From assembly GCA_036556145.1 (NCBI GenBank), contig DATBKB010000095.1, positions 809-64,808 on the forward strand: DNA of 64,000 nucleotides. Direction: 5' to 3'. The DNA is from Candidatus Limnocylindrales bacterium. GTDB lineage: Bacteria; Chloroflexota; Limnocylindria; Limnocylindrales; CSP1-4. Below are positions 43,547 to 59,046 of this stretch, piece after piece. The first letter of the stretch is position 1. The number at the start of each line of letters is the position of its first letter. A program made the translations under genes and the position numbers. Below the pieces are notes generated by a model. That model was not told the origin of the DNA. It searched no databases and was given only the letters and a program-made list of their open reading frames with translations.

Positions 43547-43933
43547 TCAGTCCGGCGACGAGCCCTCGAGCGCGATGACGTCGCCGACGGCCGTGCCGGT
43601 CGCGTCGATCGTGCCCGCCGGCAGCTCGAGGACGCCGTCGGCCGCGCGGACGAGCGGCACGATCCCGAGCCACGGCCGGAGCGAGCGGTGGACGGAGACG
43701 ACGTGGCGCGCGCCGCGATCGTCGGCCCGACCGACGAAGACCGCATCGATCGGGAAGCGCATGAACATCATGTGGATGCCGTTGCTGGCGGGCAGCCACA
43801 GGCCGGCGCCGTCGCCGAGCGCGGCCCGGCCCATGAGGCCCAGGAACTTCGCCCACAGCCCGGCCGCGGTCTCGAGGCGCGCCGCCAGGACCCGGTGCCG
43901 GGTGACGTTGCGGGCGACGGTCGGATAGGTCAC
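43547..43933 (-). CDS. DUF192 domain protein (COG1430)
   Basis: 128 aa; DUF192 pattern (GLWLPASNGIHMMFMRFPIDAVFV...VHRSLRPWLGIV). Confidence 0.6.
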   Translation of the reverse strand: MTYPTVARNVTRHRVLAARLETAAGLWAKFLGLMGRAALGDGAGLWLPASNGIHMMFMRFPIDAVFVGRADDRGARHVVSVHRSLRPWLGIVPLVRAADGVLELPAGTIDATGTAVGDVIALEGSSPD

Positions 43934-43958
43934 GACGGTCCCCCGGGGAGTGAGCGGC

Positions 43959-44885
43959 TCAGTTCCCCAGGTTCTGCATGATGAGGATCAGGGCCGGCCC
44001 GAGGATGACGATGAAGAGCGACGGGAAGATGCACCCGACGAGCGGGAAGAGCATCTTGATCGGCGCCTTCGCCGCCTGCTCCTCGGCACGCTGCCGGCGC
44101 TCGATTCGCAGCTGCTCCGACTGGACCTGGAGCACCTTCGAGATCGACACGCCGAGCTGCTCGGCCTGGATGATCGCACCGATGAAGTTCGTCAGCGCCG
44201 AGACGTCGGTGCGCGGGACGATGTCGCGGAGCGCGTCGCGGCGCGCCTTGCCGACACGGATCTCGGCCAGCGCCCGGCGGAACTCGTCGGTCAGCGGGCC
44301 CTTGAGCTTCTCGACGACCTTGCCGAGGGCGCCGTCGAAGCCGAGGCCGGCCCGGACGGAGATCGTCAGGAGGTCGAGCGCGTCGGGGATCTGGAGGAGG
44401 ATCGCCTTCTGGCGGGCCCGCACGCGGCCACCCAGCCAGAACTCCGGCAGCGTGTAGCCGAGGAGCAGGCCGACGCCACCCAGGCCGAGGCCCATCGTGA
44501 GGTTGCGGCCGAGCAGGCCGATCAGGACGAAGAAGATGCCGGCGCCGACGAGGGCGCCGATCGCCTTGATGCCCAGCCAGTCGCCGACGCGGAGGTTGCC
44601 CGGGTGGCCGGCGAGGGCGAGGCGCTTCTCGGTCCGCTCCGTGAACGACTGGCTCGTGACGCGGGCGACCGCGCCCGACAGCTGCATCGCCAGCGGGCGC
44701 AGCGTCCGCTCGAGGAACGGCTGCTGGAGCTCGAGCTCCTCGAGGTTCTTCGCCTGCATCGTGCCCAGCTGGGTCAGCCGGGCCTGAACCGGGTCGACCG
44801 ACGACGAGCCGGCGAGCCCGAGGAAGATCAGCAGGATCGCCAGCGCGGCGACCCCGGCAATGACGATCGGCAGGATTGCGGGCAT
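43959..44885 (-). CDS. tadC: Tad pilus platform protein TadC (type II secretion system F family)
   Basis: T2SSF domain (LPDALDLLTISVRAGLGFDGALGKV), 3 TM segments. Confidence 0.8.
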   Translation of the reverse strand: MPAILPIVIAGVAALAILLIFLGLAGSSSVDPVQARLTQLGTMQAKNLEELELQQPFLERTLRPLAMQLSGAVARVTSQSFTERTEKRLALAGHPGNLRVGDWLGIKAIGALVGAGIFFVLIGLLGRNLTMGLGLGGVGLLLGYTLPEFWLGGRVRARQKAILLQIPDALDLLTISVRAGLGFDGALGKVVEKLKGPLTDEFRRALAEIRVGKARRDALRDIVPRTDVSALTNFIGAIIQAEQLGVSISKVLQVQSEQLRIERRQRAEEQAAKAPIKMLFPLVGCIFPSLFIVILGPALILIMQNLGN

Positions 44886-44889
44886 CTGC

Positions 44890-45900
44890 TCAGACCTCGA
44901 TGTCGACGATCTTGCGGATGAGCATGAACCCGATGAACATCATGAACAGGCCGAAGGCCATGATGATGATCCCGGCCGGCAGGCCGAGGATCCCGGGCGG
45001 ATTCGCGAACATCGGGTCGAAGAACTTGGGGGCGGCGACGAAGATGAAGCCGGCGAGGCCGATCGGCAGGAAGCCGACGACGTAGCCCGACAGCCGCTGC
45101 TGCGCCGTCAGCGTGCGAATCTCGCCCTTGATCCGGATCCGCTCGCGGATCGTGTACGCGATGGAGTCGAGGATCTCGGCGAGGTTGCCACCGACGGTGT
45201 GCTGGATCGAGATCGCCGTCGCCATCAGCTCGAGGTCGTCCGACCGCACGCGGCGGACCATGTTCTCGAGCGCCTGCTCGAACGGCAGGCCGAGGTTGAC
45301 CTCACGGATGACGCGGCCGAACTCGGTCGAGACCGGCGGCCGCGACTCGCGGACGACGAGCTCGATCGCCTGGAGGAACGACGAGCCGGCGCGCAGCGCG
45401 TTGGCGATGAGGGTGATCGTGTCAGGCAGCTGCTTGTCGAACGCCCGGAGGCGTCCGCTCTTGCGCCGGGTGAGCCACATCCGCGGCATGATGAAGCCCA
45501 GGAGCGCGGCCACGAGCAGCGCGACCGGGCTGCGCAGCGCGGGCAGGCCCAGGGACAGCGCGACGAACAGCATCGGCGTGCCGACGATCGAGCCGGCCCA
45601 GATGCCGAGGAACTCGCTCACCTTGAGCTTGAGGTCGGCTCGCGCGATCTCCCGGGCGAGGTTCGCACCGAAGTCCCGCTGCTCGACGACCTTGTTGAGC
45701 TGGGTCAGCGCCGCGCTCTGGGCGAGGATGTCGGCCAGGCCGCCCTGACCCGCCGCGGCCGCCTTCTGGTCACGGCCGGCCGCGTAGCGCTCGAGGCGGG
45801 CGCTGATTCCCGAGCTGCCGCCGGACGTCGCGATTCCGACGGCGATCAGGACGATCGCCAGTGCGGCGACCCCCGCGATCGCAATCGTCATTCCGTCCAC
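44890..45900 (-). CDS. tadB: Tad pilus platform protein TadB (type II secretion system F family)
   Basis: T2SSF domain (LPDTITLIANALRAGSSFLQAIELVV), paralogous to tadC and adjacent to it. Confidence 0.8.
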   Translation of the reverse strand: MDGMTIAIAGVAALAIVLIAVGIATSGGSSGISARLERYAAGRDQKAAAAGQGGLADILAQSAALTQLNKVVEQRDFGANLAREIARADLKLKVSEFLGIWAGSIVGTPMLFVALSLGLPALRSPVALLVAALLGFIMPRMWLTRRKSGRLRAFDKQLPDTITLIANALRAGSSFLQAIELVVRESRPPVSTEFGRVIREVNLGLPFEQALENMVRRVRSDDLELMATAISIQHTVGGNLAEILDSIAYTIRERIRIKGEIRTLTAQQRLSGYVVGFLPIGLAGFIFVAAPKFFDPMFANPPGILGLPAGIIIMAFGLFMMFIGFMLIRKIVDIEV

Positions 45901-45920
45901 GAGCGCTTCCTCCTTCCGAC

Positions 45921-47333
45921 CTAGTAGGCGAAGCCGAAGATGTTCGGGGCGAGGTGGATGCCCATGACCTCGAACTTCTCGACGAACTTCGGCCGGATCC
46001 CGGTCGGCTTGAGGCGACCCTGGATCTTGCCGTCGACGACGCCCGTCTGCTCGAAGACGAAGACGTCCTGCATGACGATGACGTCGCCTTCCATGCCCTG
46101 GACCTCGGTGATGTTCGTGATCTTCCGGGTCCCGTCCTTGAGGCGGCTCTGGTGGACGATGAGGTCCACCGCCGAGGAGATCTGCTCACGGATGGCGCGG
46201 ACCGGCAGGTCGACGCCGGCCATGAGCACCATCGTCTCGAGGCGCGACAGCATGTCGCGCGGCGAGTTGGCGTGACCGGTCGACATCGACCCGTCGTGGC
46301 CGGTGTTCATCGCCTGGAGCATGTCGAGCGCCTCGCCGGCGCGGCACTCTCCGACGATGATCCGGTCGGGCCGCATTCGGAGGGAGTTGCGGACGAGCTC
46401 CCGGATCGGGATCGCGCCCTTGCCTTCGATGTTCGGCGGCCGCGACTCGAGGGTGACGACGTGCTCCTGTCGAAGCTGGAGCTCGGCCGCGTCCTCGATC
46501 GTGACGATCCGCTCATCGTTCGGAATGAACGAGGAGAGGACGTTGAGGGTCGTGGTCTTGCCCGAGCCGGTACCGCCGGAGACGAAGATGTTCAGCCGGG
46601 CCTCGACGCAGGCGCGGAGGAAGTCGAACATGTCCGGCGTCGCCGTCCCGAAGCGGACGAGGTCGTCGACCGTGAACGGGCTGGCCGAGAACTTCCGGAT
46701 CGTGATGACGGGGCCGACGAGCGACAGGGGCGGGATGATCGCGTTGACGCGCGAGCCGTCGGTCAGGCGGGCGTCGACCATCGGGCTCGACTCGTCGACG
46801 CGGCGTCCGATCGGGGCGATGATCCGATCGATGATCCGCATGACGTGGTCGTCGTTCTGGAACACGACGTTCGTCAGCTCGAGGCGGCCGCTGCGCTCGA
46901 TGTAGACCTGACGCGGGCCGTTGACCATGACTTCGGAGATCGACTCGTCGCGGAGGAGCGGCTCGAGCGGGCCGAGGCCGATGATCTCGTCGGTGATCTG
47001 CTCGAGCATTCGGACCCGCTCGGCGCGGGTCAGGGCCAGGCCCTCCTCGTCGATGACCTTGCCGAAGATCTCCTCGATCTGGCGGCGAACCTCGACCTGG
47101 TTGGACAGGTCGAGCTTGGGGTCGAGGTCCTGGATGACGCGGTTCTGGATCCGGAACTTGACGTCCCGGAACGACTCGCGGACAGGGCCCTGGGCCATCA
47201 GCCGGGCCGCGGACGTCGCGGGCGGGCCGCCGCTCGGGGGCGTCGGCGCGGCCGGCGAGCCGGCGCCGGACCCAGCGGGCGTGGCCGGGCCACTGCCCGG
47301 TCGGGCGGACTCGATTCGCTTCAGGAGGGACAT
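45921..47333 (-). CDS. cpaF: Tad pilus secretion ATPase CpaF/TadA
   Basis: VirB11/CpaF-type hexameric ATPase; Walker A VSGGTGSGKTT, Asp box, His box (TGHDGSMSTGHANSP). Confidence 0.9.
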   Translation of the reverse strand: MSLLKRIESARPGSGPATPAGSGAGSPAAPTPPSGGPPATSAARLMAQGPVRESFRDVKFRIQNRVIQDLDPKLDLSNQVEVRRQIEEIFGKVIDEEGLALTRAERVRMLEQITDEIIGLGPLEPLLRDESISEVMVNGPRQVYIERSGRLELTNVVFQNDDHVMRIIDRIIAPIGRRVDESSPMVDARLTDGSRVNAIIPPLSLVGPVITIRKFSASPFTVDDLVRFGTATPDMFDFLRACVEARLNIFVSGGTGSGKTTTLNVLSSFIPNDERIVTIEDAAELQLRQEHVVTLESRPPNIEGKGAIPIRELVRNSLRMRPDRIIVGECRAGEALDMLQAMNTGHDGSMSTGHANSPRDMLSRLETMVLMAGVDLPVRAIREQISSAVDLIVHQSRLKDGTRKITNITEVQGMEGDVIVMQDVFVFEQTGVVDGKIQGRLKPTGIRPKFVEKFEVMGIHLAPNIFGFAY

Positions 47334-47380
47334 CGCTCAGACCCCTTTCGCCCCGCAGGGGCGTGCTTCGACCACCGTCA

Positions 47381-48622
47381 TCACCGCCATGCGAAGAGAG
47401 ACTTCCGGGCAGCCGGCTTCTGCGGCTCGGCCGCGGGCACCGGCTCGCGCTCGCCGACCACGGCGGCGGCGAGCCGAAGGATGTCGTGCGAGACCTGCGC
47501 CTCGCGGTTGCTCAGGAAGAAGGGCACGCCGCGGTTGAGCGCGTAGACGACGCTCCGGCCGTCGCTGACGATCGTGTGATCGACCTTGCGGCCGATCGAG
47601 TTCTCGACGTCGGTGACCTTGATCCCGAGCGTTGAGTCGGCCCGATTGAGGACGAGGCGAACCTTGCCCGTCTCGTAGCCGAGCTGCTCCGCGACCTCCA
47701 GGAAGAGGCGCATGTTCTTGATGCTCGTGATCTCGAGGCTGAGCATCGTCAGGATGATGTCGGCGCTGTCGAGGATGCCGAGGGTCGTGTCGTTGAACCA
47801 CGACGTGCAGTCGACGACGACGAGGTCGTGCTTCGCCCGGAGCGCCTCGAGGACCTTCTTGACGCCGGACGGGTTGATGAGCTCGGCCATCTCGGGGGAC
47901 GGTGGGGCGAGCAGGACGCCGATGCCGGCGGAGTGGTTGATGACGAAGGTATCGAGCGAGTCGGCCTCGCCCGCCTCGAGCTCCGGCACGAGGTCGGCGA
48001 TCGACTTGTTGCGGGGGTTGAGGTTGAGGAGCACGCCGACGTCGCCGAACTGGAACGAGCCGTCGACGAGGACGACGTCCTTGCCGAGCTCGGTCGCCGC
48101 GGCCACCGCGAGGTTCACGGCGACCGTCGTGCGGCCGACGCCGCCCTTCGGGCTGAAGACCGCGACGAGGATCCCGGGATCGCGGGACGGGCCGTCGGTC
48201 CCGCTCGCGACCGGCACGGCCGCGGCCATCCGCGACAGCTTCTCCCGCTCGCGGATGTAGACCTGCCGGATCGAGGCGGTCAGCTCGTCGCTGCTGAACG
48301 GCTTGACGAGGAACTCGCGCGCGCCGGCGAGCATCGAGCGCCGAAGGTAGTCGGCCTCGCCCTGGACGGACATCATGACGACCGATGCCGTCGGCGCCCG
48401 CGCGGCGAGCTGTTCGGTCGTGCTGATGCCGTCCATGTCCGGCATGTTGATGTCCATCAGCACGACGTCCGGCTGGAGCTTCACGGCGAGCTCGATCGCC
48501 TCGCCACCCGACGACGCGGACCCGACCACCTCGATGTCGGCCTCGAAGCCGAGGAGCTTGGTCAGGTGATCCCGCGTCTCCGGGATGTCGTCGACGATCA
48601 GGACCTTGATCTGGTCGGCCAT
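47381..48622 (-). CDS. cpaE: CpaE/TadZ-like pilus assembly protein (N-terminal receiver domain + ParA/MinD-like ATPase domain)
   Basis: REC-like N-terminus (KVLIVDDIPETRDHL...VVLMDINMPDMDG) fused to deviant Walker A ATPase (VFSPKGGVGRTTVAVNLA). Confidence 0.85.
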   Translation of the reverse strand: MADQIKVLIVDDIPETRDHLTKLLGFEADIEVVGSASSGGEAIELAVKLQPDVVLMDINMPDMDGISTTEQLAARAPTASVVMMSVQGEADYLRRSMLAGAREFLVKPFSSDELTASIRQVYIREREKLSRMAAAVPVASGTDGPSRDPGILVAVFSPKGGVGRTTVAVNLAVAAATELGKDVVLVDGSFQFGDVGVLLNLNPRNKSIADLVPELEAGEADSLDTFVINHSAGIGVLLAPPSPEMAELINPSGVKKVLEALRAKHDLVVVDCTSWFNDTTLGILDSADIILTMLSLEITSIKNMRLFLEVAEQLGYETGKVRLVLNRADSTLGIKVTDVENSIGRKVDHTIVSDGRSVVYALNRGVPFFLSNREAQVSHDILRLAAAVVGEREPVPAAEPQKPAARKSLFAWR

Positions 48623-48750
48623 CTGGGAGCTGTCAGTTCCCTAGCGAGACTTGCGATGGATGGGAGCGACGGGCGCGGGACGTTGCGTCCGCGCGCCCGT
48701 CGGGGCCTGTCCGGGGAGCCGGCCGCCCCTGGCGACCGCTCGATCGGTGA

Positions 48751-49632
48751 CTACTGCCGCTCCGGCAGGATTGCTTCGACGAGCTGCGGGATGAGGACGT
48801 CGTACTCGTCGACGAGGACCCGCAGGGTCACGCCGGTCGTGCCGGCCGCCTCGCCGGGGATGACGTTGCCCTGCTCGTCGCGGAAGTCGTTCGGCGAGCG
48901 CAGGACGAGCGACACCGTGCCGTCCATCTGGGCGAACTTGATGACCTCGGCCTGCTGCGGCGTCACCGAGAGGATGACGATCTCCTGCTGGCCGGTGAGG
49001 GTCACGCCCTGCTCACCCTGGGTCTGGCCCTCGGTCGTCTCCCGCGGCGGGAGCAGGGTGCCGATGACCTGCATGCCCTGGAGCAGCAACTTGACGCTGG
49101 TGGCGTTGATGCCCGAGACGACGTTGATCGTGTCGTCCGACGGGTTGAGCGTGACGACCGGGAACTTGTCGGTGCCGAAGCCGACGAGCAGGTCGACGTA
49201 GTCACCCTGTCGGATGACGGTGCCGACGCCCGAGACCTGGTCGACCTGGATCGCGATCGCGCGCTGTCCGGGCGGCACCGTGACGTTGATGAGGCCGGTC
49301 GAAGCTCCGGTATCGAAGTCGCGGGCCGTCAGCTGCTTGCCGGCCGCGATGTCCTGACGGGCGATCTTGCCGAGCAGGAGGCTGGCGTCCGGGAAGGCCT
49401 GCGCGTCACGCTGGGTGACCGCGAGGTTCTTGCTGGTGAGCATGTCCGCGGTGATCGGCGTGCCGAGCGCGATGGCTCGGGCGGCGAACACCGTCGGGAG
49501 CTGCGATGGCGTCTGCGTGCCGCCGCCGCCACCGCGGTCGCCCTGGAAGACGACCACGATTCCGACGAAGGCGACGATCGCGAGGAAGACGCCGATGAGC
49601 AGGACGAGCCGATTCGAGCGCTTCAAGTGCAT
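48751..49632 (-). CDS. cpaB: Flp pilus assembly protein CpaB/RcpC (SAF domain)
   Basis: N-terminal TM anchor then SAF/CpaB region (PTVFAARAIALGTPITADML..., ATSVKLLLQGMQVIG). Confidence 0.8.
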   Translation of the reverse strand: MHLKRSNRLVLLIGVFLAIVAFVGIVVVFQGDRGGGGGTQTPSQLPTVFAARAIALGTPITADMLTSKNLAVTQRDAQAFPDASLLLGKIARQDIAAGKQLTARDFDTGASTGLINVTVPPGQRAIAIQVDQVSGVGTVIRQGDYVDLLVGFGTDKFPVVTLNPSDDTINVVSGINATSVKLLLQGMQVIGTLLPPRETTEGQTQGEQGVTLTGQQEIVILSVTPQQAEVIKFAQMDGTVSLVLRSPNDFRDEQGNVIPGEAAGTTGVTLRVLVDEYDVLIPQLVEAILPERQ

Positions 49633-49829
49633 TCTCCCCGTGTGTGACAGGTGGCACCATGATGGGGAGGGCCTCGGGGGCCCGCGACTATACGGATTGG
49701 CTAGGACCCCCGGGAAGATTCGGCAGGAAACGCCGCGTGACGAAAGGTCGCCCGCAAGGTGGCCCTCCGGCCCGACCGGTGCTCAGGCAAGGTTCGACGC
49801 AAGGTCCGGCAGGCCGCGGGCCGGCGCGG

Positions 49830-49988
49830 GTGCTCTCGAGCCGCCCGCGGCGCCCGCTGCGCCTCTGGAGCCGCCCGCGGCGCCTGCTGCGCCCTCTCGA
49901 GCCGAGCGCTGCGCCTGCTGCGCCTCTGGGAGCCGCCCGCGGCGCCCGCTGCGCCCTCTCGAGCCGCCCGCTGCGCCTCCCGCGGGCC
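49830..49988. repeat. Tandem direct repeat array 1: five ~31-bp units, consensus TCTCGAGCCGCCCGCGGCGCCCGCTGCGCC
   Basis: Units at 49830, 49864, 49895, 49925 and 49957, directly abutting with no spacers; non-coding flp1-cpaB intergenic region. Confidence 0.7.
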
Positions 49989-50039
49989 CCCGCCTTCTCG
50001 CAGGTACGCACCCTGCGCGTGGTAGATCGCGGACCGGGC

Positions 50040-50285
50040 CGCTTCGTCAATCGGCTACGCACCAGGTGCGTACCTGAGCCCTCGTTCGCGCCTTTCGCCC
50101 TGCCGCGCGGCGCCAACACGCACCACGTGCGTACCTGAGCCTCGGTCCCGCACGTCGCCTACCCGCGCGGCGCCAACACGCACCGGGTGCGTACATGAGT
50201 GCTCGTCGGCGCCGTCTGCCCTGCCACGCGGCGCGAACCCGAACCACGTGCGTACCCCGGCCTCGGTCTGCGACGCTCCGCGGGC
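50040..50285. repeat. Tandem direct repeat array 2: ~4 units of ~60 bp, each carrying a TACGCAC-N3-GTGCGTA inverted repeat
   Basis: Palindromes at 50056-50072 (TACGCACcagGTGCGTA), 50118-50132 (ACGCACcacGTGCGT) and 50178-50192 (ACGCACcggGTGCGT); degenerate fourth copy ~50245; half-site GTACGCAC at ~50003. Units share the flank GCCGCGCGGCGCCAACACG...GTACCTGAGCCTCGGTC. Confidence 0.6.
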
Positions 50286-50322
50286 AACGAAAAAGCGGCC
50301 CGCCGTTCGTCCGGCGGGCCGC
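50286..50322 (-). terminator. Intrinsic terminator downstream of flp1 (minus strand)
   Basis: Perfect 11-bp GC stem (gcggcccgccg / cggcgggccgc), 6-nt loop; on the minus strand followed by UUUUUCGUU; 20 bp after the flp1 stop. Confidence 0.6.
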
Positions 50323-50343
50323 TTTGATTGGCGGTTCAGGGGG

Positions 50344-50538
50344 TCAGGGCGTGACGCTGTCGATCGAGCTGCCGATGACGCTGAGCTTGTCGCTCACCTG
50401 GCTGCCCAGGAACATGAGCGCGGAGATTGCGACGATCGCGATCAGGGCGAGAATGAGTGCGTATTCGGCCAGGCCCTGGCCATCCTCGTCGCGGCGGATG
50501 AGCGAATAGAGCCGGACGAGTGCGGAGCGGATGCCCAC
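50344..50538 (-). CDS. flp: Flp family type IVb pilin 1
   Basis: Flp motif G-x4-EY (RRDEDGQGLAEYALILALIAIVAI), hydrophobic helix and Ser/Thr-rich tail; AAGGAGGTG RBS 5 nt before GTG at 50538 (ORF track start 50622 is an unsupported extension). Confidence 0.75.
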   Translation of the reverse strand: MGIRSALVRLYSLIRRDEDGQGLAEYALILALIAIVAISALMFLGSQVSDKLSVIGSSIDSVTP

Positions 50539-50769
50539 CAGTTCACCTCCTTTCATCGGAGTCGTTGGCGGACCCGGTTGCCACAGGGCTACTGCCGGTC
50601 CGGCGCCGCTCGTACAGGCCACACTAGGTTTGCCGGTACGGGTGTCAATGACCCGAATGGGGGGAGTGGTGACGAGGCGCCACGAGCGTCCGCCACGCTC
50701 CCCGGAAGAGTCGAACCGCCGGCCCGACAGGCGGGCCGGCGGTCCGGATGGTCGCGAGTCAGGAGGCGA

Positions 50770-50940
50770 CTAGATCGAGTCGCCGACCGTGCTGAGGATC
50801 GTGCTGACCTGCGAGCCGAGGAAGATCAGCGCGACGATCGCGACGATCGCGATGAGGGCGAGGATCAGCGCGTACTCGGCGAGACCCTGGCCTTCCTCGT
50901 CGCGACGGAACGACGCGATAAGTGCATGAAGGAACGACAT
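50770..50940 (-). CDS. flp: Flp family type IVb pilin 2
   Basis: MSFLHALIASFRRDEEGQGLAEYALILALIAIVAIVALIFLGSQVSTILSTVGDSI; AGGAGG RBS 9 nt upstream of ATG 50940. Confidence 0.75.
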   Translation of the reverse strand: MSFLHALIASFRRDEEGQGLAEYALILALIAIVAIVALIFLGSQVSTILSTVGDSI

Positions 50941-51196
50941 GTGCTTCGACACCTCCTTTCCTTCAGAAAGTCCCTCGGTATACGCCGAAGGCGAGGCCAA
51001 CGTACGAACGCCGGCATGGGTGCCGCAATGGGACTTCAGGGATAGGACCTGGTGCGTCGGCGCCCTCGTCACGCACGGGCCCGGGGCAGCCCGTCAACGG
51101 GAGTCGTGGAGGGGAGAGCGGCCGCCCGGTGGGCGGCGGGCAAAACGAAACCGCCGGGCCCGAAGGCCCGGCGGTTAGACCGTTCTGGCGTGACGA

Positions 51197-51367
51197 CTAG
51201 ATCGAGTCGCCGACGGTGCTGAGGATCGTGCTGACCTGGGCGCCCAGGAAGATCAGGGCGACGATCGCAACGATCGCGATGAGGGCGAGGATCAGCGCGT
51301 ACTCGGCGAGACCCTGGCCATCCTCGTCGCGGCGAAGCGCGGCGAAGAGCGAGTGAATGAGCGCCAT
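51197..51367 (-). CDS. flp: Flp family type IVb pilin 3 (near-identical paralogue of pilin 2)
   Basis: MALIHSLFAALRRDEDGQGLAEYALILALIAIVAIVALIFLGAQVSTILSTVGDSI; AGGAGG RBS 9 nt upstream of ATG 51367. Confidence 0.75.
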   Translation of the reverse strand: MALIHSLFAALRRDEDGQGLAEYALILALIAIVAIVALIFLGAQVSTILSTVGDSI

Positions 51368-51519
51368 CTGAGGCTGCCTCCTGGATGAGTTCCACCCTCG
51401 GTCGAGGGCCTCAGCCACTATTGCAGCGCCCATCCGGCCGGGAAACTAGCGGAATCGTACTGCCGAAGGGTCCCAGTAGCGTGGGTTCGGGCACCGCCCG
51501 GTCAACGGCCGGGCGCCCC

Positions 51520-51702
51520 CTAGCGGCCCTCGGACGCCTCCACGGCCCGGGCGATGAAGTCGAGCACGTCGGCGACCGTGCCGCCGGCGAACGTCAGCAG
51601 GCCCAGGGCGAAGAGCGCCGCGCCGCCGAGGATCAGGCCGTACTCGACGATGCCCTGGCCGGCGATGCGCCGAGGCACCGGTCGACCGGGGCGTCGAGTC
51701 AC
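51520..51702 (-). CDS. Divergent Flp-like prepilin 4
   Basis: VTRRPGRPVPRRIAGQGIVEYGLILGGAALFALGLLTFAGGTVADVLDF...; G-x4-EY motif present; GTG start overlaps the stop of the upstream degenerate kinase (GTGA). No obvious RBS. Confidence 0.5.
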   Translation of the reverse strand: MTRRPGRPVPRRIAGQGIVEYGLILGGAALFALGLLTFAGGTVADVLDFIARAVEASEGR

Positions 51703-52847
51703 CGCGACGCCGTCGTCGGCTCGGCGGACGTGGCGTCCGCGATCACGAGCAGCGTGCCGCCGTCGTCGATGAGCTGGACGGTCGCCCCGATTGGCGCCGC
51801 TCGCTGCTGGATCTCCCGCCAGGCGGCGTCGGGGAGCGTCAGCTGCCACGCCTGGCGAGCCGCCTCGGCCGCCTTGAGCTGGTCCGCGCGGCGATCCTCC
51901 ATCATCGCCGCGAGCGCCGGCGGGACGTCCTTGCCGGCCTTCTTGTCGCGCTCGGCCTCGACCGGCACGCTCGGCCGCTCACCGCTTCGCTTCGCGCTGA
52001 CCCGGGCCTCGAGCTGGTCTGACCAGTCGAGGCGGATCGCCAGCGAATCGGGGGCCTGGGAGAGGTAGGCGGCGAGCGCCTCGTCGACGATGCGGAAGAG
52101 CGCGCTCTCGATCTCGACCGGCAGCCGCCGGTCGGCCCCGAGCGAGTCGAACGACACCGCGACGCCCGCCCGGCGGCCGCGGTCGCGGGCGGCGCGGCGG
52201 AGCGTGGGCACGAGCCCGAGGTCGTCGAGGACCATCGGCCGGACGTCGAAGATGAAGGACTTCGTCGCCTCGAGCGTCTGCTGGACCATGCCGATGAGGA
52301 GCCCGACCTCGGTCCGCGCCCGGGCGGTGTCGGTGGCGAGGAGCCGTTCCACGATCTGGGCCTGGAGGACGATGTTCGTCAGGCTCTGCGCGGGACCGTC
52401 GTGCATCGCGCGCGCAATCTCGCGGCGAAGATCCTCCTGGGCGGCGAGGACGGCCCGCGACGCCGCCGGCGGCAGCGACCCGTCGGCGGCGGACAGCGTC
52501 CGGGCCGGTGCATCGGCAGCCGCGAGCTTGCCGAGCGACTCGCGGAAGCGCGCGAGTGTCTTCCGCTTGCCCTCGAGGACGTCGACCTGGGCCTCCATGA
52601 GCGCCGCCCGACGCGTCAGCGTGACGAGCTGGTCGCTGAGCTCGAGGCGCTCCTTGAAGTCGGCGTTGCGGTCGACGAGGATCGTCATCTTGTCCGCAGC
52701 CTGCTTGCGCTTCTGCTCGTGGCGAGCGGACTCGGCCTTCGCCTGGTTGATGAGCAGCTCGATCTCACGGAGCTCCTTGTCGAGCACGGCAAGCTCCGCG
52801 GCGAGGGGCTGATCGGCGGGCGCGGAGGCGGTCACGGAATCGGTCAC
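51699..52847 (-). CDS. DegS-like cytoplasmic histidine kinase paralogue with degenerate ATP-binding domain (putative pseudokinase)
   Basis: Coiled-coil N-terminus and HisKA_3 H-box (LRREIARAMHDGPAQSLTNIVLQAQIVERL). C-terminal region lacks clear N/G1/G2 boxes (no KHA, no DxGxG/GxGL) and carries a low-complexity insertion. Confidence 0.65.
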   Translation of the reverse strand: MTDSVTASAPADQPLAAELAVLDKELREIELLINQAKAESARHEQKRKQAADKMTILVDRNADFKERLELSDQLVTLTRRAALMEAQVDVLEGKRKTLARFRESLGKLAAADAPARTLSAADGSLPPAASRAVLAAQEDLRREIARAMHDGPAQSLTNIVLQAQIVERLLATDTARARTEVGLLIGMVQQTLEATKSFIFDVRPMVLDDLGLVPTLRRAARDRGRRAGVAVSFDSLGADRRLPVEIESALFRIVDEALAAYLSQAPDSLAIRLDWSDQLEARVSAKRSGERPSVPVEAERDKKAGKDVPPALAAMMEDRRADQLKAAEAARQAWQLTLPDAAWREIQQRAAPIGATVQLIDDGGTLLVIADATSAEPTTASR

Positions 52848-52914
52848 GCGAGCGCGGTCCCCTGACTTCTGGTCGGAGTTCGTGGAGCGGTGATGGGTCG
52901 GCCGGTGCCCGGGG

Positions 52915-53661
52915 TCAGTCCTCGGGCATCCGGATCCATCCCTGGCGCATCGCGTACACGACGGCCTGGGTGCGGTCGTTCACCGACAGCTTGCGCAGGA
53001 TCGAGCTCATGTGGTTCTTGACGGTCTGCTCGCTGATCGACAGGGAGTAGGCAACCTGCTTGTTCGTCATGCCCTGGGCGATGTTGTCGAGGATCTCGAC
53101 CTCGCGCGGCGAGAGCGGCGCGAAGATCGGGGCCGCTTCCTGGCCGTAGACGGCCAGCTCGCGGAACTCCTTGAGCACGCGGCTCGCGACCGACGGCTTC
53201 GCGAAGACCTTGTCGTTGATCAGGTACTCGCCCGTGACGACGCGGCGAATGATCGTGACGAGGTCGTCGGGTCCGACGTCCTTGAGGATGAACGCGGCCG
53301 CGCCGGCCTTGATCGCATCGAACAGCGCGTCCTCGTCCTCACTGACGGCGAGCACGATGATCCCCGTCGACGGCAGCTCGCGCTTGATCCGCTGGGTCGT
53401 CTCGATGCCGCCGGGGGCGGGCAGCGAGAGGTCCATGAGGATGATGTCCGGCGACGTCTCGAGCGACCGGTCGACCGCGGAGCGGCTGTCGTCGGCCTCG
53501 CCGACGACGTCGAAGTCCGACTCGCGCTCGATGATGTTCTTGATCCCGACCCGGAACAGGGCGTGGTCGTCGACGATGAGGATCCGGGTCTTCTCGCCCG
53601 GACCACGCCGGTCGGGGCCGCCCCGACGGCGCTCCGGGCCGCTGTAGTCGATTGCCGTCAT
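52915..53661 (-). CDS. NarL/FixJ (DegU-like) response regulator
   Basis: REC domain (ILIVDDHALFRVGI...IILMDLSLPAPGGIETT) and LuxR-type HTH (LSPREVEILDNIAQGMTNKQVAYSLSISEQTVKNHMSSILRKL). Confidence 0.85.
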   Translation of the reverse strand: MTAIDYSGPERRRGGPDRRGPGEKTRILIVDDHALFRVGIKNIIERESDFDVVGEADDSRSAVDRSLETSPDIILMDLSLPAPGGIETTQRIKRELPSTGIIVLAVSEDEDALFDAIKAGAAAFILKDVGPDDLVTIIRRVVTGEYLINDKVFAKPSVASRVLKEFRELAVYGQEAAPIFAPLSPREVEILDNIAQGMTNKQVAYSLSISEQTVKNHMSSILRKLSVNDRTQAVVYAMRQGWIRMPED

Positions 53662-54734
53662 GTCGTCTCCTTTGCTCCCATCGGGATCGCGAGCCGGACG
53701 ACCGTGCCCTCACCGGGTCGCGATCGTACGTCGAGACGGGCCCCGATCAGCTCGGCCCGCTCCTGCATGAACCGGACTCCGAAGTGGCGGCGACCCTGGG
53801 TGGTCGCCGTGGCGAGGTCGAATCCCCGCCCGTCATCGCGAATTTCGAGGACCCAGTCCTCACCTTCGACCCGGGTCGTGACGGACACCTTGGAGGCCGA
53901 GGCGTGCTTGCGGACATTCTGGAGCGCCTCCTGCGCGACGCGCAGGGCGACGGTCTGGGCGGCGTCCGGGAGCCGCCCGTCGGGAGCCGTGAGATCGCTC
54001 TCGACGGTGACATGGATGAGCGATCCGGCCTGACGGATCGTCTCCTCGAGCGCGCCGTTGAGGCCGACGGCGTCGAGGAGCGGTGGCCGGAGCTGGCCGA
54101 TGAAGCCCCGAACCTCGCCGAGCTCGCGGCGCAGGAGGTCGCGCAGCGAGAGCAGCTCGATCCGGGCCTGGCGCGGATCCTTGCCGACGATCCGCTCGAT
54201 GTATTCGACCTGGAAGATCGCGTTCGACAGCACCTGCGCCGGCCCGTCGTGGACCTCCTGGGCGAGCCGCGAGCGCTCGGCCTCCTGGGCCTGGACGATC
54301 CGCAGGTTCACGTCCGCGGTGCCGCCGCCACCCGATGGGTTGATGAGGCTCGTGTCGCCGCGCTCGAGGAAGAGCCACAGCGATTCGAGATTGCGGACGG
54401 CGAGCTCGAGGCGGTTGAGCTCGGCCTGTTGACGGCCCAGCTCGCCACGGCGGCGATGGAGCTCCTGGCGCGGATCGATCTTGCCCGCGGCCGGGGGCCG
54501 AATCGCTTCCCGGGCGGCGTCTCGCGCCTCGACGCGGCGTCGCAACGCGAGCCAGGCCGCCTGCTCCTCGCCGTAGGCGGTGCGGTACTCCTCGCGGAGC
54601 GCGCGCAGCTTGTTCGCGGTGGACGCGAGGGCGGCCTTCGCCTCGGCATGGAGCCCCTCGATGCGCCCGACCGGCGACTCGGCCCCGGCGCGTGCTGCGT
54701 CCATCTGGCGGCGAGTATACGGAACGTCTTTCAT
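53658..54734 (-). CDS. DegS-like cytoplasmic sensor histidine kinase (HisKA_3 + HATPase_c)
   Basis: Coiled-coil N-terminus, H-box (RLAQEVHDGPAQVLSN), N-box (QEALQNVRKHASA), G1 (IRDDGRGFD), G2 region. Start ATG 54734 overlaps the stop of the upstream GT (ATGA); stop overlaps the RR start (ATGA). Confidence 0.85.
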   Translation of the reverse strand: MKDVPYTRRQMDAARAGAESPVGRIEGLHAEAKAALASTANKLRALREEYRTAYGEEQAAWLALRRRVEARDAAREAIRPPAAGKIDPRQELHRRRGELGRQQAELNRLELAVRNLESLWLFLERGDTSLINPSGGGGTADVNLRIVQAQEAERSRLAQEVHDGPAQVLSNAIFQVEYIERIVGKDPRQARIELLSLRDLLRRELGEVRGFIGQLRPPLLDAVGLNGALEETIRQAGSLIHVTVESDLTAPDGRLPDAAQTVALRVAQEALQNVRKHASASKVSVTTRVEGEDWVLEIRDDGRGFDLATATTQGRRHFGVRFMQERAELIGARLDVRSRPGEGTVVRLAIPMGAKETT

Positions 54735-56401
54735 CGGCAGACCACCCGGAAGACGCGCGTGCCCTCGAGCGCCGCCGCGAGTCGGGGATCGTCGGGGGTG
54801 CCGAGCGGGACCTCGTCGAAGCACTCGGTGCCCGGTCCGCCGGCGTCGAGGATCGCGGGCCACACCTCGTGCTGGCCGCCGTGGATCACGAGCGTGCGCG
54901 TCCCGGGGAACGCGGCCGCGAGCGCGAGCACCGACGCCGGTCGCTCGTCCGGGAGCGCGAGCCCGCGGGCGCCGGTCGTCTCGGCCAGCCAGATCGGGTA
55001 GTCGGTAATGACGGGGCCGATGTCCCGCAGCGGCAGGCCGGCCGCGGCCATCTCGGCCTCGAGCGCCACGTACCGGTTGGCGGTCTCGCGCGAGCCGGCG
55101 CCGAACGACGGCAGCAGCGCGATCGAGAAGAGCGCCGCGCCGGCCACCGTCAGCGTCGCCCCGAGCCAGGCCACCGGCCGCGTCCAGCCCCGCAGCCGGC
55201 CGACCCGGGCAATCAGCGCGTCGAGGCCGAAGAGCGCCGAGACGATGAGCAGCACGTGGACCGGTCCCGCGGCGTGGAGAAACGTGCCCCACGTCGTCGC
55301 GACCGGGAACAACAGGCTCGTCACCGTGAACGTCAGGGCCGAGACGAGGACGACCGGCCGCAGCGCAACCGAGCGGACGAGCCACGGCAGCGCGACGAGC
55401 CCGACGATCGACACGGGGGCGCCCGGCGCGAGCAGGACGTTGACGAGGTTGTGGGCGAGGCCGTCGACGCGCATCTCGATGAGGCGCGCCGGCCCGACCG
55501 CGAGGTACCGGGCGAGCGTCGGCGGGTCGGCCCAGGCGAAGACGTCCGAGCCGCGGACGGAGAGCGCGTTCGACAGCGCCTGTCCCGGCAGCGGGTTGCC
55601 GAAGACGATCCAGTCGCGGATCGCCCACGGGGCGAAGAGGGCCAACGCGATGACGCCCGGCACCGCCACCATCGCGACCTTGCGGCGCCGGTCCGGCCCG
55701 CGTCGCGACCACATGATGAGCACCCAGGCGAGCGCAAGCCAGGCCGCTTCGTTCCGCGTCCACGCCGCGAGGCCGAGCAGCGCGCCGAGGCCGACGAGCC
55801 GGGCGTCGAGGAGCCGCAACTCCTCGGCGGCCCGGGCGGCTCGCGTCATGAGAAGGCACGCGCCGAGGGCGAGCACCGTGAACGGCATCGTCGAATCGGG
55901 CAGGGCGCTGTGGAGCAGGAGCGGCAGCGACACGGCGGCCGTCAGACCGGCACCGAGCGCGAGCGTTCGCGCGCGACCCGGCGGCAGGCCGCGCTCCGCG
56001 GCAAGGTCGGCCGCGAGTCGCCAGGCCAGCGGCGGGACGGCCGCGCCGACGAGCACCGAGCTCAGCTGCGCCGCGGCAAACGTCGAGCCGAGCACCGCCA
56101 TCGGCATCGCCGCGAGCAGCGTCGGGAGCGGCAGCCAGACCTCGAATGCGGCGCGCGGGATCTCGAGCGGCGGCGTGCCGTAGCTCCAGAGCGCGTCGCT
56201 CACCATGCCACGGCCCTCGAGGATGTTCGCGGCGACCGCGACGTAGTAGGCGGTGTCCTCGGGCTTCGGGAACACGACGAGCGACGCGGCGACGACTCGA
56301 ACCGCGAGACCGAGGGCGACGACGGCCGCGAGGGCCGCGATCGCGGGCAGCGTGAGGACCGCCCGCACCGAGACGGGAGCGAGGGTCGCCGGCCGGGTCA
56401 C
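54731..56401 (-). CDS. GT-C fold membrane glycosyltransferase, PMT_2/ArnT-like (GT39/GT83 family), copy 2
   Basis: ~556 aa polytopic; first-loop acidic motif (FPKPEDTAYYVAVAANILEGRGMVSDALW) typical of Pmt/ArnT-like GT-C enzymes. GTG start at 56401 overlaps the stop of copy 3; the six-frame ORF to 57547 is a frame overlap. Confidence 0.7.
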   Translation of the reverse strand: MTRPATLAPVSVRAVLTLPAIAALAAVVALGLAVRVVAASLVVFPKPEDTAYYVAVAANILEGRGMVSDALWSYGTPPLEIPRAAFEVWLPLPTLLAAMPMAVLGSTFAAAQLSSVLVGAAVPPLAWRLAADLAAERGLPPGRARTLALGAGLTAAVSLPLLLHSALPDSTMPFTVLALGACLLMTRAARAAEELRLLDARLVGLGALLGLAAWTRNEAAWLALAWVLIMWSRRGPDRRRKVAMVAVPGVIALALFAPWAIRDWIVFGNPLPGQALSNALSVRGSDVFAWADPPTLARYLAVGPARLIEMRVDGLAHNLVNVLLAPGAPVSIVGLVALPWLVRSVALRPVVLVSALTFTVTSLLFPVATTWGTFLHAAGPVHVLLIVSALFGLDALIARVGRLRGWTRPVAWLGATLTVAGAALFSIALLPSFGAGSRETANRYVALEAEMAAAGLPLRDIGPVITDYPIWLAETTGARGLALPDERPASVLALAAAFPGTRTLVIHGGQHEVWPAILDAGGPGTECFDEVPLGTPDDPRLAAALEGTRVFRVVCR

Positions 56402-58026
56402 GAGCCGCACCGATCGTCGGTCGCGGTGACGCACACCGGATAGAGCGCGATCTCCGGCCCTGGCCGGGGCGGCGCGTAGGCCCGGAAGATCGGCCGGCCG
56501 ATCCAGCTCGGACGCGACTGGCCGAGGAGCACCGGCGCGAGCGGCGCGACGATGTCGTCGCGCTCGAGGACGAGCCAGCGCGTGCCGTAGGCGCGCGCGA
56601 CGGACTCGATCGTGTCGAGTGGGTCGTTGGGGGTCACGACGCCGCCGCGGCCCGTGGCGTAGCGCATGCCCGCGGCATCGATCGACAGGATTCGATCGTT
56701 CATGCCCGCGCCCGCGGCATCGAGGGCGACCGCGACGGCGGAGCGCGCCTCGCGCTTGCGATCCCAGCCGGCGTGGACCGAGACCGCCGACGCGACCGCG
56801 GCGAACAGCGCGAATACGACCGCGGCGGTCGTGAAGATGCGCGTCGCACCGGCCGGATTCCAGGACCGGCGGCGGGCGGCCGTCCAGGCGACGCCGACGG
56901 CGATCCCCTCGACGGCCAGGATGTACGAGTGGGGGACCAGCGCGACCGCGCTGTGGATGAACGTGCCGCCGGGCACGTGGACCGCCGAGACGAGCGCCGA
57001 GAATGCGAACAGCAGCCCGGCGTAGGCGAAGAACGGCCCGAAGTCGCGCGACCGCCGCCGCGCCCAGCCGCCGATCGCCATGAGCGGCACGAGGAGGCCC
57101 GCGCCGACGAGCGTCGTGTAGATGAGCGCCGCCGCGATGAGGCCGCCGATACGGCTCGCGACGAGCGGCCCGGCGCCCTGGCCGAGGAAGGAGTCGAGGT
57201 TGGCCGGCGTGGTGATGCTGTTCCACTCGTCGATCGAGCGGATGTAGAGGACCCTGCCCGTCGCCGCCGACGGGGACAGCGAGCCGAAGACCTCGAGCTG
57301 GCGCAGCCACCACGGCCCGACGGCGAGGAGGAACAGCACGAGTGCCGCGACCGCGGCCCAGGCCGGGATCGCCGGCGCACGGCCGCCGCCCGCACGCCAC
57401 GCCCGCCACCGGTCGTACAGCACCGCGAGACCGAACGTTGCCGCGAGCAGGACCCCGTCGTTGCGCGACATCGTCGCAAGGCCGACGAGCAGGCCACCGA
57501 GGACGAACGACCGGGGATGGCCCTTGAGCCCGCGCGCGGCCATCCACAGCGCCCCGACGGCGAGCGGCTGGAACAGCGAGAAGTTGTCCGGCTGGGGCAT
57601 GAAGACCAGCGACAGCGCCGGGATCGCGGTGAGGATCCCTGCCGCGAACGCGACGGCCGGGCTCGCCCCAGCTTCGCGTGCGATGGCCCAGCAGAGCGGC
57701 GCCGCGATGGCGCCGATGAGCGCGAACGGCAGCGCCGACGCGAACGCCGTCGGTCCCAGGACCGCGATGAACGGAACCTGGACGAACGACGCGAGCGGCA
57801 TCCAGTGGGCGTTGCTCGGAATCGGCAGCGTCGGATCCGACGGGATCCCGCCACCGACCTCGGCGAAGATCCAGATGAAGTCGACGCTCAGCCCGTGGCC
57901 CGTCGCGAGCGCCCGCGCGACGTCGGTGTAGTAGTAGCTGTCGGGGTAGGCAGGGTCGGGGAACAGCGCGACCAGGACCAGTCGCGCCGCGAGCGCCAGT
58001 ACGTAAAGGAGGGTGGGGATGCCCAC
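56398..58026 (-). CDS. GT-C fold membrane glycosyltransferase, PMT_2/ArnT-like (GT39/GT83 family), copy 3
   Basis: ~542 aa polytopic; VGIPTLLYVLALAARLVLVALFPDPAYPDSYYYTDVARALATGHGLSVDFIW; GTG start 58026 proposed (ORF track extends to 58995 through low-complexity Arg/Glu/Asp sequence that is probably not translated). Confidence 0.65.
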   Translation of the reverse strand: MGIPTLLYVLALAARLVLVALFPDPAYPDSYYYTDVARALATGHGLSVDFIWIFAEVGGGIPSDPTLPIPSNAHWMPLASFVQVPFIAVLGPTAFASALPFALIGAIAAPLCWAIAREAGASPAVAFAAGILTAIPALSLVFMPQPDNFSLFQPLAVGALWMAARGLKGHPRSFVLGGLLVGLATMSRNDGVLLAATFGLAVLYDRWRAWRAGGGRAPAIPAWAAVAALVLFLLAVGPWWLRQLEVFGSLSPSAATGRVLYIRSIDEWNSITTPANLDSFLGQGAGPLVASRIGGLIAAALIYTTLVGAGLLVPLMAIGGWARRRSRDFGPFFAYAGLLFAFSALVSAVHVPGGTFIHSAVALVPHSYILAVEGIAVGVAWTAARRRSWNPAGATRIFTTAAVVFALFAAVASAVSVHAGWDRKREARSAVAVALDAAGAGMNDRILSIDAAGMRYATGRGGVVTPNDPLDTIESVARAYGTRWLVLERDDIVAPLAPVLLGQSRPSWIGRPIFRAYAPPRPGPEIALYPVCVTATDDRCGS

Positions 58027-58140
58027 GGCGCGGTGCAGGGTAGCACCGGCCCTAAGCCAATCGGACCAGTACGAATCGGCTAGCGAGGGGGGCGAACGGA
58101 TGGGCTGACGGGGCGGTTCGCGCCGCGCAGATTCGGCCCC

Positions 58141-59046
58141 ATGCCATCCCCGTGGGCCGGCTCCGGCCGTCGCGTGCTCCGTGCGGTCGGTGCCACGCTC
58201 GCCGCATTCGGCTTCGTCATCGGGGTCCAGATCGCGGTCATCCACTTCCAGGTCGATCCCTTCGCCGACGTCCGCGCGTACTACGACGCCGCGACCCGGC
58301 TCAACGCCGGCGCCGGCCTCTATGACCAGGCCGTTGGGACCAACGAGGCCGCGTTCTACCGGTACCCGCCGCTGCTCGCCATCGCCTTCCGGCCGCTCGC
58401 CCTGCTGCCGTTCGAGGCCGCGGCGCTCGTCTGGGAGGTCGTCGTCGTCGGGGCGTTCGCGCTGACCCTGTGGCGGGTGGGTCTCGGCCGGCGGACGCTC
58501 CTGCTCGTCGGGCTGCTCGGCCTGCCGATCGGCTGGAGCATGGCGATTGGCCAAGCCCAAGTTCCGGTCACGCTCCTGACCGCGCTGGGCACGCCGCTGG
58601 CGCTCGCCCTGGCGACGAACCTCAAGGTCCTGCCGGCCCTCGCGGCCGTCTGGTGGATCGGCCGCCGCGACTGGGCGGCGCTCACCCGGTTCGCCACATG
58701 GATGGTCGCCCTCATCGCTCTCCAGCTCGTCCTCGAGCCTCGCGGCTCGCTCGCCTTCCCGGCCGTCCTGACCCTCGACCACGTCGGCCAGGTCCGGAAC
58801 TTCTCCCCGTACGTCGTCTCGCCCGCCCTCTGGGTGGCACTCGTCGCGGCCGGCGGGCTGCTCGCGGTTCGCCTTGCCCCGACGCGGTATGGCTGGGCGG
58901 CGGCCGTCGCCCTCTCGGTGCTCGCGACGCCGCGCCTCCTCACGTACCAGCTGATGACGCTCATCGCGGCCCTCCGAGAGCCCGCATCGTCCCATCGGGC
59001 TGTCGCGCCGGCGCCCGCGGCGGCGCCTGCGAGGAGCGTCGCGTGA
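58141..59046 (+). CDS. DUF2029/GT87-family membrane glycosyltransferase (PimE-like mannosyltransferase-like), copy 1
   Basis: Polytopic; DUF2029 hallmark YxYPP (AAFYRYPPLLAIAF) and VRAYYDAATRLNAGAGLYD loop. Confidence 0.7.
   Translation: MPSPWAGSGRRVLRAVGATLAAFGFVIGVQIAVIHFQVDPFADVRAYYDAATRLNAGAGLYDQAVGTNEAAFYRYPPLLAIAFRPLALLPFEAAALVWEVVVVGAFALTLWRVGLGRRTLLLVGLLGLPIGWSMAIGQAQVPVTLLTALGTPLALALATNLKVLPALAAVWWIGRRDWAALTRFATWMVALIALQLVLEPRGSLAFPAVLTLDHVGQVRNFSPYVVSPALWVALVAAGGLLAVRLAPTRYGWAAAVALSVLATPRLLTYQLMTLIAALREPASSHRAVAPAPAAAPARSVA

Follow-up and report, generated by a model that had tools for sequence, protein, structure and literature searches.

A four-gene Flp prepilin array, with one member probably coupled to a degenerate-kinase gene, heads a monoderm-type Tad locus of the class Limnocylindria

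We analyzed a 64-kb stretch of contig DATBKB010000095.1 (assembly GCA_036556145.1) from Candidatus Limnocylindrales bacterium (Chloroflexota; Limnocylindria), hereafter the window, which carries a group of small Flp prepilin genes beside genes for Tad pilus machinery. Limnocylindria are abundant uncultured Chloroflexota of soil and freshwater, and a literature search on their pili or surface appendages found no papers. A preliminary description of this DNA had proposed four tandem Flp prepilin genes heading a Tad locus, and we find all four in place on the minus strand (Table 1). Each open reading frame (ORF) shows the G-x4-EY processing site that had been claimed for it, followed by a hydrophobic stretch of about 20 residues, with cleavage sites of the form DG/QGLAEY in flp1-3 and AG/QGIVEY in flp4. 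The residues G, Q, G, E and Y of this site are invariant in both Flp family alignments. The four products, of 64, 56, 56 and 52-60 amino acids (aa), fall within the size of Flp/Fap prepilins (about 50-80 aa). As the same description had it, flp2 and flp3 differ in their mature parts by a single S/A exchange (48/56 residues are identical overall), while flp1, whose product reads (V)GIRSALVRLYSLIRRDEDG/QGLAEYALILALIAIVAISALMFLGSQVSDKLSVIGSSIDSVTP, departs from both in its leader and has a longer tail with a C-terminal extension. The flp4 product, VTRRPGRPVPRRIAG/QGIVEYGLILGGAALFALGLLTFAGGTVADVLDFIARAVEASEGR, is highly divergent, with 32% identity to flp1. The likeliest start of flp1 is GTG 50538, 7 nt past an AGGAGG, rather than 50541; the Joint Genome Institute (JGI) call is ATG 50556. 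An alternative flp4 start at GTG 51678 would give 52 aa and is the one chosen by JGI and public gene calls, so an exact-sequence look-up of the 60-aa form returned no record.

Using profile hidden Markov models (HMMs) of the relatives' Flp proteins against a six-frame translation of the window, we recovered only these four ORFs (E 1e-22 to 2e-7), and the same models found no fifth Flp gene in the 64 kb below E 1. The Pfam family Flp_Fap (PF04964) matches flp1, flp2 and flp3 at E 1.4e-5, 2.5e-6 and 1.5e-5, and an NCBIfam scan of the four proteins gave no meaningful match. The array lies between a two-component gene module, which ends with the kinase-like gene psHK, and an operon that supplies the core Tad machinery set: TadA/CpaF, TadB, TadC, TadZ/CpaE and RcpC/CpaB, with TadB and TadC seen as two T2SSF proteins (E 1.9e-20 and 1.2e-19). 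Judged from its sequence, the locus has the core traits by which Flp pilins and Tad machinery loci are defined.

A genome scan with the psHK alignment gave 80 related loci, all in metagenome-assembled genomes labelled Limnocylindria, Limnocylindrales, Chloroflexota, Chloroflexia or Anaerolineaceae. The locus sequence L001 is the same as that of the window, and L002 and L003 are the closest relatives. Reading the order of the window's proteins in these genomes by tblastn, we found PMT2, a 559-aa membrane protein, kinase, regulator, psHK, the flp genes, cpaB, cpaE, cpaF, tadB, tadC and DUF192 in synteny across the 80 genomes, with the full order seen in every locus long enough to hold it. Homologs of psHK are numerous, and the named ones carry a Chloroflexota or Candidatus Limnocylindrales label. 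An identical copy of flp2 also occurs on a JGI soil metagenome contig on which the gene order matches.

Table 1 Features of the flp-tad locus, in positions of the 64-kb window.
Feature	Position	Strand	Description
DUF192 gene	43547-43933	minus	DUF192 (PF02643)
tadC	43959-44885	minus	T2SSF
tadB	44890-45900	minus	T2SSF
cpaF/tadA	45921-47333	minus	T2SSE 1.9e-65
cpaE/tadZ	47381-48622	minus	AAA_31/CbiA and N-terminal REC
cpaB	48751-49632	minus	RcpC 4.9e-20; TIGR03177 2.1e-36
Tad machinery operon	43547-49632	minus	cpaB-cpaE-cpaF-tadB-tadC-DUF192, directly downstream of flp genes
cpaB regulatory region	49633-49805	minus	direct repeats, TTTCCTGCC, -10-like TATAGT, conserved leader
cpaB conserved leader	49642-49658	minus	GGTGCCACCTGTCACAC
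cpaB -10-like element	49687-49692	minus	TATAGT (TGGTATAGT-type)
cpaB direct-repeat pairs	49741-49760 and 49786-49805	minus	ACCTTGCG-N4-ACCTTKCS
Insertion in flp1-cpaB spacer	49833-50256	n/a	lineage-specific, extra ~500 bp
31/62-bp tandem array	49833-49978		GC-rich; part of spacer insertion
61-bp array	50004-50255		4-5 palindromes GTACGCAC-NN-GGTGCGT; part of spacer insertion
flp1 intrinsic terminator	50286-50325	minus	14-bp GC stem, 6-nt loop, UUUUUCGUU tail (U5)
flp1	50344-50538	minus	T-type (terminal) Flp prepilin, 64 aa; leader ...RRDEDG / mature QGLAEY...; C-terminal extension SDKLSVIGSSIDSVTP
flp1 promoter-like element	50621-50648	minus	TTGACA-N16-TAGTGT
Hairpin after flp2	50712-50746	minus	15-bp GC stem, poor U tail
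flp2	50770-50940	minus	M-type Flp prepilin copy 2, 56 aa; leader MSFLHALIASFRRDEEG/QGLAEY...STVGDSI
flp2 promoter-like element	50999-51037	minus	GAAGTCCCATTGCGG-N18-TACGTT
flp3 intrinsic terminator	51139-51176	minus	12-bp stem, UUCG loop, U-rich tail
flp3	51197-51367	minus	M-type Flp prepilin copy 1, 56 aa; leader MALIHSLFAALRRDEDG/QGLAEY...STVGDSI
flp3 upstream blocks	51414-51462	minus	CAGTACGAT..CTAGT.. and GCTGCAATAGTGGC; from aligned orthologous upstream regions
flp4	51520-51702	minus	R-type Flp-like prepilin, 60 aa; short basic leader; mature QGIVEYGLIL...AVEASEGR
psHK	51699-52847	minus	382-aa cytoplasmic DegS-like protein, HisKA_3 only
LuxR/NarL-type response regulator	52915-53661	minus	REC and GerE; 76-97% identical across the class
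DegS-like histidine kinase	53658-54704	minus	cytoplasmic, 348 aa, HisKA_3 and HATPase_c; stop overlaps regulator start
PMT_2-family membrane glycosyltransferase (865-aa ORF) and 559-aa multi-transmembrane protein	54731-58995	minus	directly upstream of kinase gene

In a census of 82 locus sequences, the Flp-like ORFs sort into three conserved classes, R, M and T. The R type (flp4-like; QG[LIV][VI]EYG...) directly follows psHK and is present in 71/82 loci. The M type (flp2/flp3-like) occurs in 1-5 copies per genome, with mature parts nearly identical within a genome, and the T type (flp1-like; ...SDKLSVIGS..SV.P), always placed last among the flp genes, closes the array in most related loci of full length. 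R-M-M-T, the arrangement of the window, is also the commonest (29 loci), and a deeper subclade has the R type and one M gene only. The R-type leader is short and basic; M- and T-type leaders finish with an acidic RRDE(E/D)G.

The M-type leaders come in two forms (MAL... and MS.L.ALI.SF...), and because each form is conserved between genomes, they seem to be under a constraint of their own. Nucleotide identity of the leaders is 0.82-0.96 between orthologs (against L002 and L003) and 0.58-0.69 between paralogs, and the mature-coding parts are about equally similar in the two comparisons. The mature parts resemble one another slightly more within genomes (0.92; pS, the synonymous differences, 0.22) than between them (0.84; pS 0.30). 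Since the leaders of flp2 and flp3 are orthologous between genomes, the duplication must be old, and a recent origin of the pair is ruled out. We therefore read flp2 and flp3 as predicted to be kept as differently led, separately promoted sources of one 39-residue mature pilin, possibly with some homogenisation of the mature parts.

Because the R type is kept in so many loci, we take flp4 to be, on present sequence data, a real and conserved member of the Flp family. The preliminary description had held that a lack of conservation, with dN/dS (the ratio of nonsynonymous to synonymous substitution rates) near 1, would count against flp4 as a coding gene. We found a dN/dS of 0.38 against L002 and 0.27 against L003, and pairwise differences at codon positions 1/2/3 of 0.34/0.21/0.48 across the R type, which is a coding pattern. 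Class-wide pN/pS values are about 0.57 for R, 0.41 for M and 0.22 for T. The R-type profile aligns with the M/T profile in hhalign (99.4%, E 5e-21), 17/25 R-type proteins match Flp_Fap at E < 0.1 (best 2.8e-5), and 10/25 match the archaeal Class_IIIsignal model. Searching with the R-type profile, we retrieved 2573 related public proteins, many of them named by JGI 'Flp pilus assembly pilin Flp'. The positions invariant within the type are GQG-EYGL, an L and a G.

The coupling of flp4 to a pseudokinase gene, also proposed before, is seen in the GTGA by which its GTG start at 51702 overlaps the psHK stop. An R-type start lies within -4 to +30 nt of the psHK stop in 58/69 loci, with an NTGA overlap in 28. 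In the window, flp4 lacks a strong Shine-Dalgarno site as well as any hairpin or terminator of its own. The DHp region of psHK matches HisKA_3 (9.3e-12), and its MHDGPAQ motif, with the phospho-accepting His, is invariant in 21 homologs. A Pfam scan of psHK gave no HATPase_c match and no G boxes were detectable in it; the stretch that aligns with the neighboring true kinase starts at the H box and breaks off as the N box begins, with DEALAA in place of the kinase's QEALQN and Ala in place of the N-box Asn. Its AlphaFold model (mean predicted local distance difference test score 80.5) resembles the DesK DHp+CA fold. 'Pseudokinase' is a fair label for these sequence motifs. Both psHK and the true kinase are without transmembrane segments. 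The kinase, the LuxR-type regulator, psHK and flp4 likely form a regulatory operon with flp4 at its end, and we regard the psHK-flp4 pair as one modestly interesting variant feature of an otherwise ordinary locus.

The other three genes, flp1, flp2 and flp3, each have a strong Shine-Dalgarno sequence of AGGAGG type and appear from their flanking signals to be separate transcription units. Their promoter-like elements were recognized by conservation among six aligned genomes; a strict sigma-70 consensus scan of 49500-53000 found 0 sites. Upstream of flp1, a block is conserved as ATTGACACC...CCTAG(T/G)GT in 5/6 of the aligned genomes (consensus ATTGACACC-N-CCTAGTGT), and upstream of flp2, the block GAAGTYCYATTGAC and a TAnnnT element are partly conserved across the six. 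Searched against Rfam at gathering thresholds, the full 64 kb gave 0 matches, so the long flp leaders belong to no known RNA family. The strong terminator that had been placed right after flp1 is present, at -39.3 kcal/mol with z = -5.0, and an equivalent hairpin was found in 5/5 related loci inspected. The hairpin after flp2 reaches -42.3 kcal/mol for a 75-nt segment (z -2.8). flp1 has the best promoter and terminator of the array.

A further control region precedes cpaB. The final ~170 nt before this gene are conserved in 65 loci and include ACCTTGC-N5-ACCTTGC repeats, TTCCTGC, TCCTAATGGTCCTAGCCCTTTGGTATAGTCGCG and a leader TGCTACAGTGGTGCCACCTGTCACA. The repeats are unique in the 64 kb (4 matches, a count that 0/100 shuffles reach), and the region as a whole is a likely binding site for a response regulator. 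The spacer between flp1 and cpaB measures 195-755 nt in five relatives inspected; the insertion in the window's spacer was not found in them, and L003 has a different long spacer. We considered the palindrome of this insertion as a class-wide element and rejected it: L001 aside, it occurs once, in one related locus, and so belongs to a local insertion outside the conserved system. As a separate observation, the cpaB ATG of the window (49612-49632 region) is not conserved; in the relatives the alignment begins two codons further downstream, at a TTG (MKRSNRL...) that is probably the true start codon.

We searched for the partners that other tad loci carry. No ORF in a plausible frame within the window has the A24 motif G.GD.K, and none was found within ~10 kb on either side of the locus in the 80 relatives. 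We ran Pfam on the locus genes and on those ORFs of the window that have multiple transmembrane segments, a subset of all its ORFs, and obtained no Peptidase_A24, TadE or TadG; the families of the membrane-protein ORFs were MreD, AI-2E transporter, DUF1385, GT4, LPG synthase and GT87. No TadE-like ORF of at least 90 aa came up when a class-III-signal heuristic was run on the window translated in six frames. By these searches, the earlier statement that the 64 kb hold no tadV/CpaA and no TadE/F/G gene stands, and it extends to this locus across the class. Among the locus ORFs scanned there was also no secretin (RcpA/CpaC) domain, which is expected for a monoderm-type locus. The preliminary description had presented the missing peptidase as a notable feature; the absence is confirmed but its notability is not, since tad loci of Actinobacteria are described as typically having tadV at another site (PMC4322843), and for the same reason the absence does not exclude membership among Tad loci. 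Chloroflexales, in turn, keep tadE/E/G apart from rcpC-tadZABC (PMC7332563). Taken with the actinobacterial case, this means that absence from 64 kb says little about the genome, and by analogy the missing partners are most likely simply encoded elsewhere.

In the tad operon of Bulleidia (Bacillota), DUF192 (PF02643) stands at the 3' end of a monoderm operon, as here, but that operon begins with tadV and has tadE, tadF and tadG, none of which are nearby in Limnocylindria (PMC12786226). Chloroflexales belong to the same phylum and share the core rcpC/cpaB-tadZ-tadA-tadB-tadC and flp; they are reported with tadE/E/G (PMC7332563), of which Limnocylindria show none in the stretch analyzed, and the two groups also differ in pilin array and regulator module. 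The closest described systems are the actinobacterial tad loci (Micrococcus luteus tad-1/tad-2, Mycobacterium tuberculosis Rv3654c-Rv3660c and Bifidobacterium breve tad), which are likewise of monoderm type, with tadZ-tadA-tadB-tadC and no secretin, and have small G/XXXXEY Flp prepilins with no prepilin peptidase gene in the locus (PMC4322843). Actinobacteria, however, carry tadE/F(/G) beside flp, whereas in the 80 genomes of our sample there is none in the locus or within 10 kb, and the Limnocylindria locus has in addition three short Flp classes, cpaB/rcpC, DUF192 and an embedded module of kinase, regulator and degenerate kinase. Tandem small flp genes also head the tad operons of Pasteurellaceae (flp-1/flp-2 in A. 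actinomycetemcomitans, flp1-flp2-flp3 in H. ducreyi), where one copy is the main fiber subunit; unlike the locus studied here, these are diderm loci in which tadV, rcpCAB, tadD and tadEFG are linked. We know of no case in which the Pasteurellaceae copies are kept as classes across a bacterial class or are coupled to a regulator. The pilin array is, by these comparisons, ordinary.

We interpret the region, with a probability of roughly 60%, as the set of pilin genes for a Tad (type IVc, Flp) pilus of monoderm type that is core to the class, in which flp2 and flp3 provide the bulk pilin and flp1 and flp4 accessory ones. In such a system, flp2 and flp3 would supply the bulk fiber subunit, with a gene dosage of 1-5 copies between genomes, while flp1 and flp4 would be low-copy minor, priming or tip pilins filling the place held by TadE/TadF genes in other tad loci. 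Translational coupling would keep flp4 at a low level and tie it to the regulators. An A24 prepilin peptidase encoded elsewhere would cleave all four products after the Gly of G/QGxxEY. The two-component system would drive the flp promoters, the separately promoted cpaB-cpaE-cpaF-tadB-tadC-DUF192 operon, or both, and the CpaE receiver domain may be another of its targets. The same arrangement in every genome sampled suggests that the class has its Tad pilus as a core trait and not as a mobile colonization island. The three-class array and the psHK-coupled Flp could offer a handle on how monoderm Tad assembly is primed where no pseudopilin genes are nearby, and on how pilin supply is regulated.

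Several points weigh against this interpretation. flp1-3 score 25.1-27.6 bits on Flp_Fap, under its gathering score of 32.2, and flp4 by itself reaches 13.3 bits (E 0.074), with no match at E 0.01. Genes of the flp4 type also evolve faster than those of the T type, as their pN/pS values indicate. The Tad pilus of these uncultured bacteria is read here from genes. That the peptidase is encoded elsewhere is an assumption drawn from other phyla, and our searches around the locus found none. The minor-pilin role of flp1 and flp4 is suggested by their position, conservation and signals of weaker expression; TadE/F-like genes may lie elsewhere in the genome, as they do in Chloroflexales (PMC7332563), in which case such a role is unneeded. 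A sensor role would explain the coupling to psHK equally well.

That sensor role leads to the best-surviving alternative, which we consider unlikely but worth weighing: flp4 would be the membrane partner of the soluble psHK and not a fiber component, reporting the state of the pilin pool or Tad platform to the kinase and LuxR-type regulator, with feedback on pilin and machinery genes. Pilin genes are tied to histidine kinases in other bacteria, by PilA and PilS/PilR in Pseudomonas and by PilA and PleC in Caulobacter, and pilin monomers may signal there. PilS and PleC are kinases that sit in the membrane and have a functional ATPase domain, whereas the kinase-like proteins of Limnocylindria are both soluble and DegS-like, one of them degenerate, and the link to a pilin is conserved gene coupling. 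The idea gains from the class-wide translational coupling of the R type to psHK, from its retention even in the subclade with R and one M gene, and from the lack of transmembrane segments, which leaves neither kinase-like protein an obvious membrane input; an invariant H box and DesK-like fold without ATP-binding motifs would suit a modulator or phosphatase, and flp4 differs by its short basic leader from the M and T types, whose leaders are acidic (RRDEEG). The partnership itself is, however, read from that gene coupling, which may merely set a low expression of flp4. Cleaved flp4 would have few residues, if any, facing the cytoplasm where psHK sits, and a G/xxxxEY site with an invariant Glu5 is expected of a subunit that enters the fiber. 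In an extended form that we hold slightly more doubtful still, the flp4 type would be a pilin-derived signaling subunit, a transmembrane peptide (cleaved or not) stoichiometric with psHK, that lets a cytoplasmic two-component system read the pilin pool or Tad platform, and the class would run its Tad pilus by means of short Flp paralogues, without TadE/F-type pseudopilins.

The preliminary description had suggested a different use of the flp1 terminator. According to that proposal, the pilin genes and the cpaB operon would form a single unit in which the terminator attenuates read-through, giving high pilin and low machinery expression. The genes do stand on the same strand in the same order, the terminator is strong and conserved in the relatives inspected, and some read-through may occur. 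But cpaB has its own conserved upstream region in the 65 loci, with direct repeats of a regulator-bound kind, a TATAGT -10 and a conserved leader, which speaks against attenuated read-through as the chief connection of pilin and machinery genes and makes it unneeded. The variable spacer, which in the window tolerates a repeat insertion of ~500 bp, is a further objection. Hairpins also end flp3 and flp2, so a single transcript would have to cross three of them. We judge this proposal improbable.

Far less credible is a lineage without any A24 prepilin peptidase, in which Flp proteins are matured otherwise or used uncleaved, possibly with help from the DUF192 or 559-aa protein. It would account for the absence of the A24 motif from the window and the flanks of the 80 related loci; DUF192 is conserved after tadC and recurs in a Bacillota tad operon (PMC12786226), and a conserved protein with multiple transmembrane segments and no family match lies upstream of the kinase. 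The invariance of G/xxxxEY in all Flp classes nevertheless argues for a canonical peptidase, Actinobacteria as a rule have tadV away from the locus, and the A24 negative covers ~20 kb per genome; the DUF192 protein has no predicted transmembrane segment, and nothing ties DUF192 to proteolysis. That flp4 is a duplicate in decay, or an ORF arisen by chance, and has no function we reject as very unlikely, because despite its lack of a Pfam match at E 0.01, the highest pN/pS of the three classes and the frequency of long chance ORFs at 70% GC, the idea is contradicted by a conserved position in most loci with invariant residues, third-position-biased substitutions, the many related public proteins and a conserved start-stop coupling.

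Among the machinery genes, DUF192 comes next after tadC in each locus whose captured sequence reaches that far (window, L002-L081), and its product may be an unrecognized Tad accessory protein in monoderms. The TadZ receiver domain has been described as atypical. The N-terminal receiver of the CpaE/TadZ in the window matches Pfam Response_reg with 100 bits, and inspection by eye shows the acidic pocket and Asp that are usual in such domains; since it keeps these, it might be phosphorylated by the kinase of the locus. The ends of the PMT_2 and 559-aa ORFs upstream overlap or nearly abut, an arrangement kept in all related loci, and a link of these genes to pilin or envelope glycosylation is possible. 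The 559-aa protein has no match in Pfam (E up to 1), NCBIfam or PDB sequences. In the first part of the window (1-36132), we recognized by eye, with partial checking by Pfam, gyrA, gyrB, parB, parA, mreD, mrdA, rodA, an ATP synthase operon, murA and mreB, and these housekeeping neighbors appear to place the tad locus in an origin-proximal region, not on an island.

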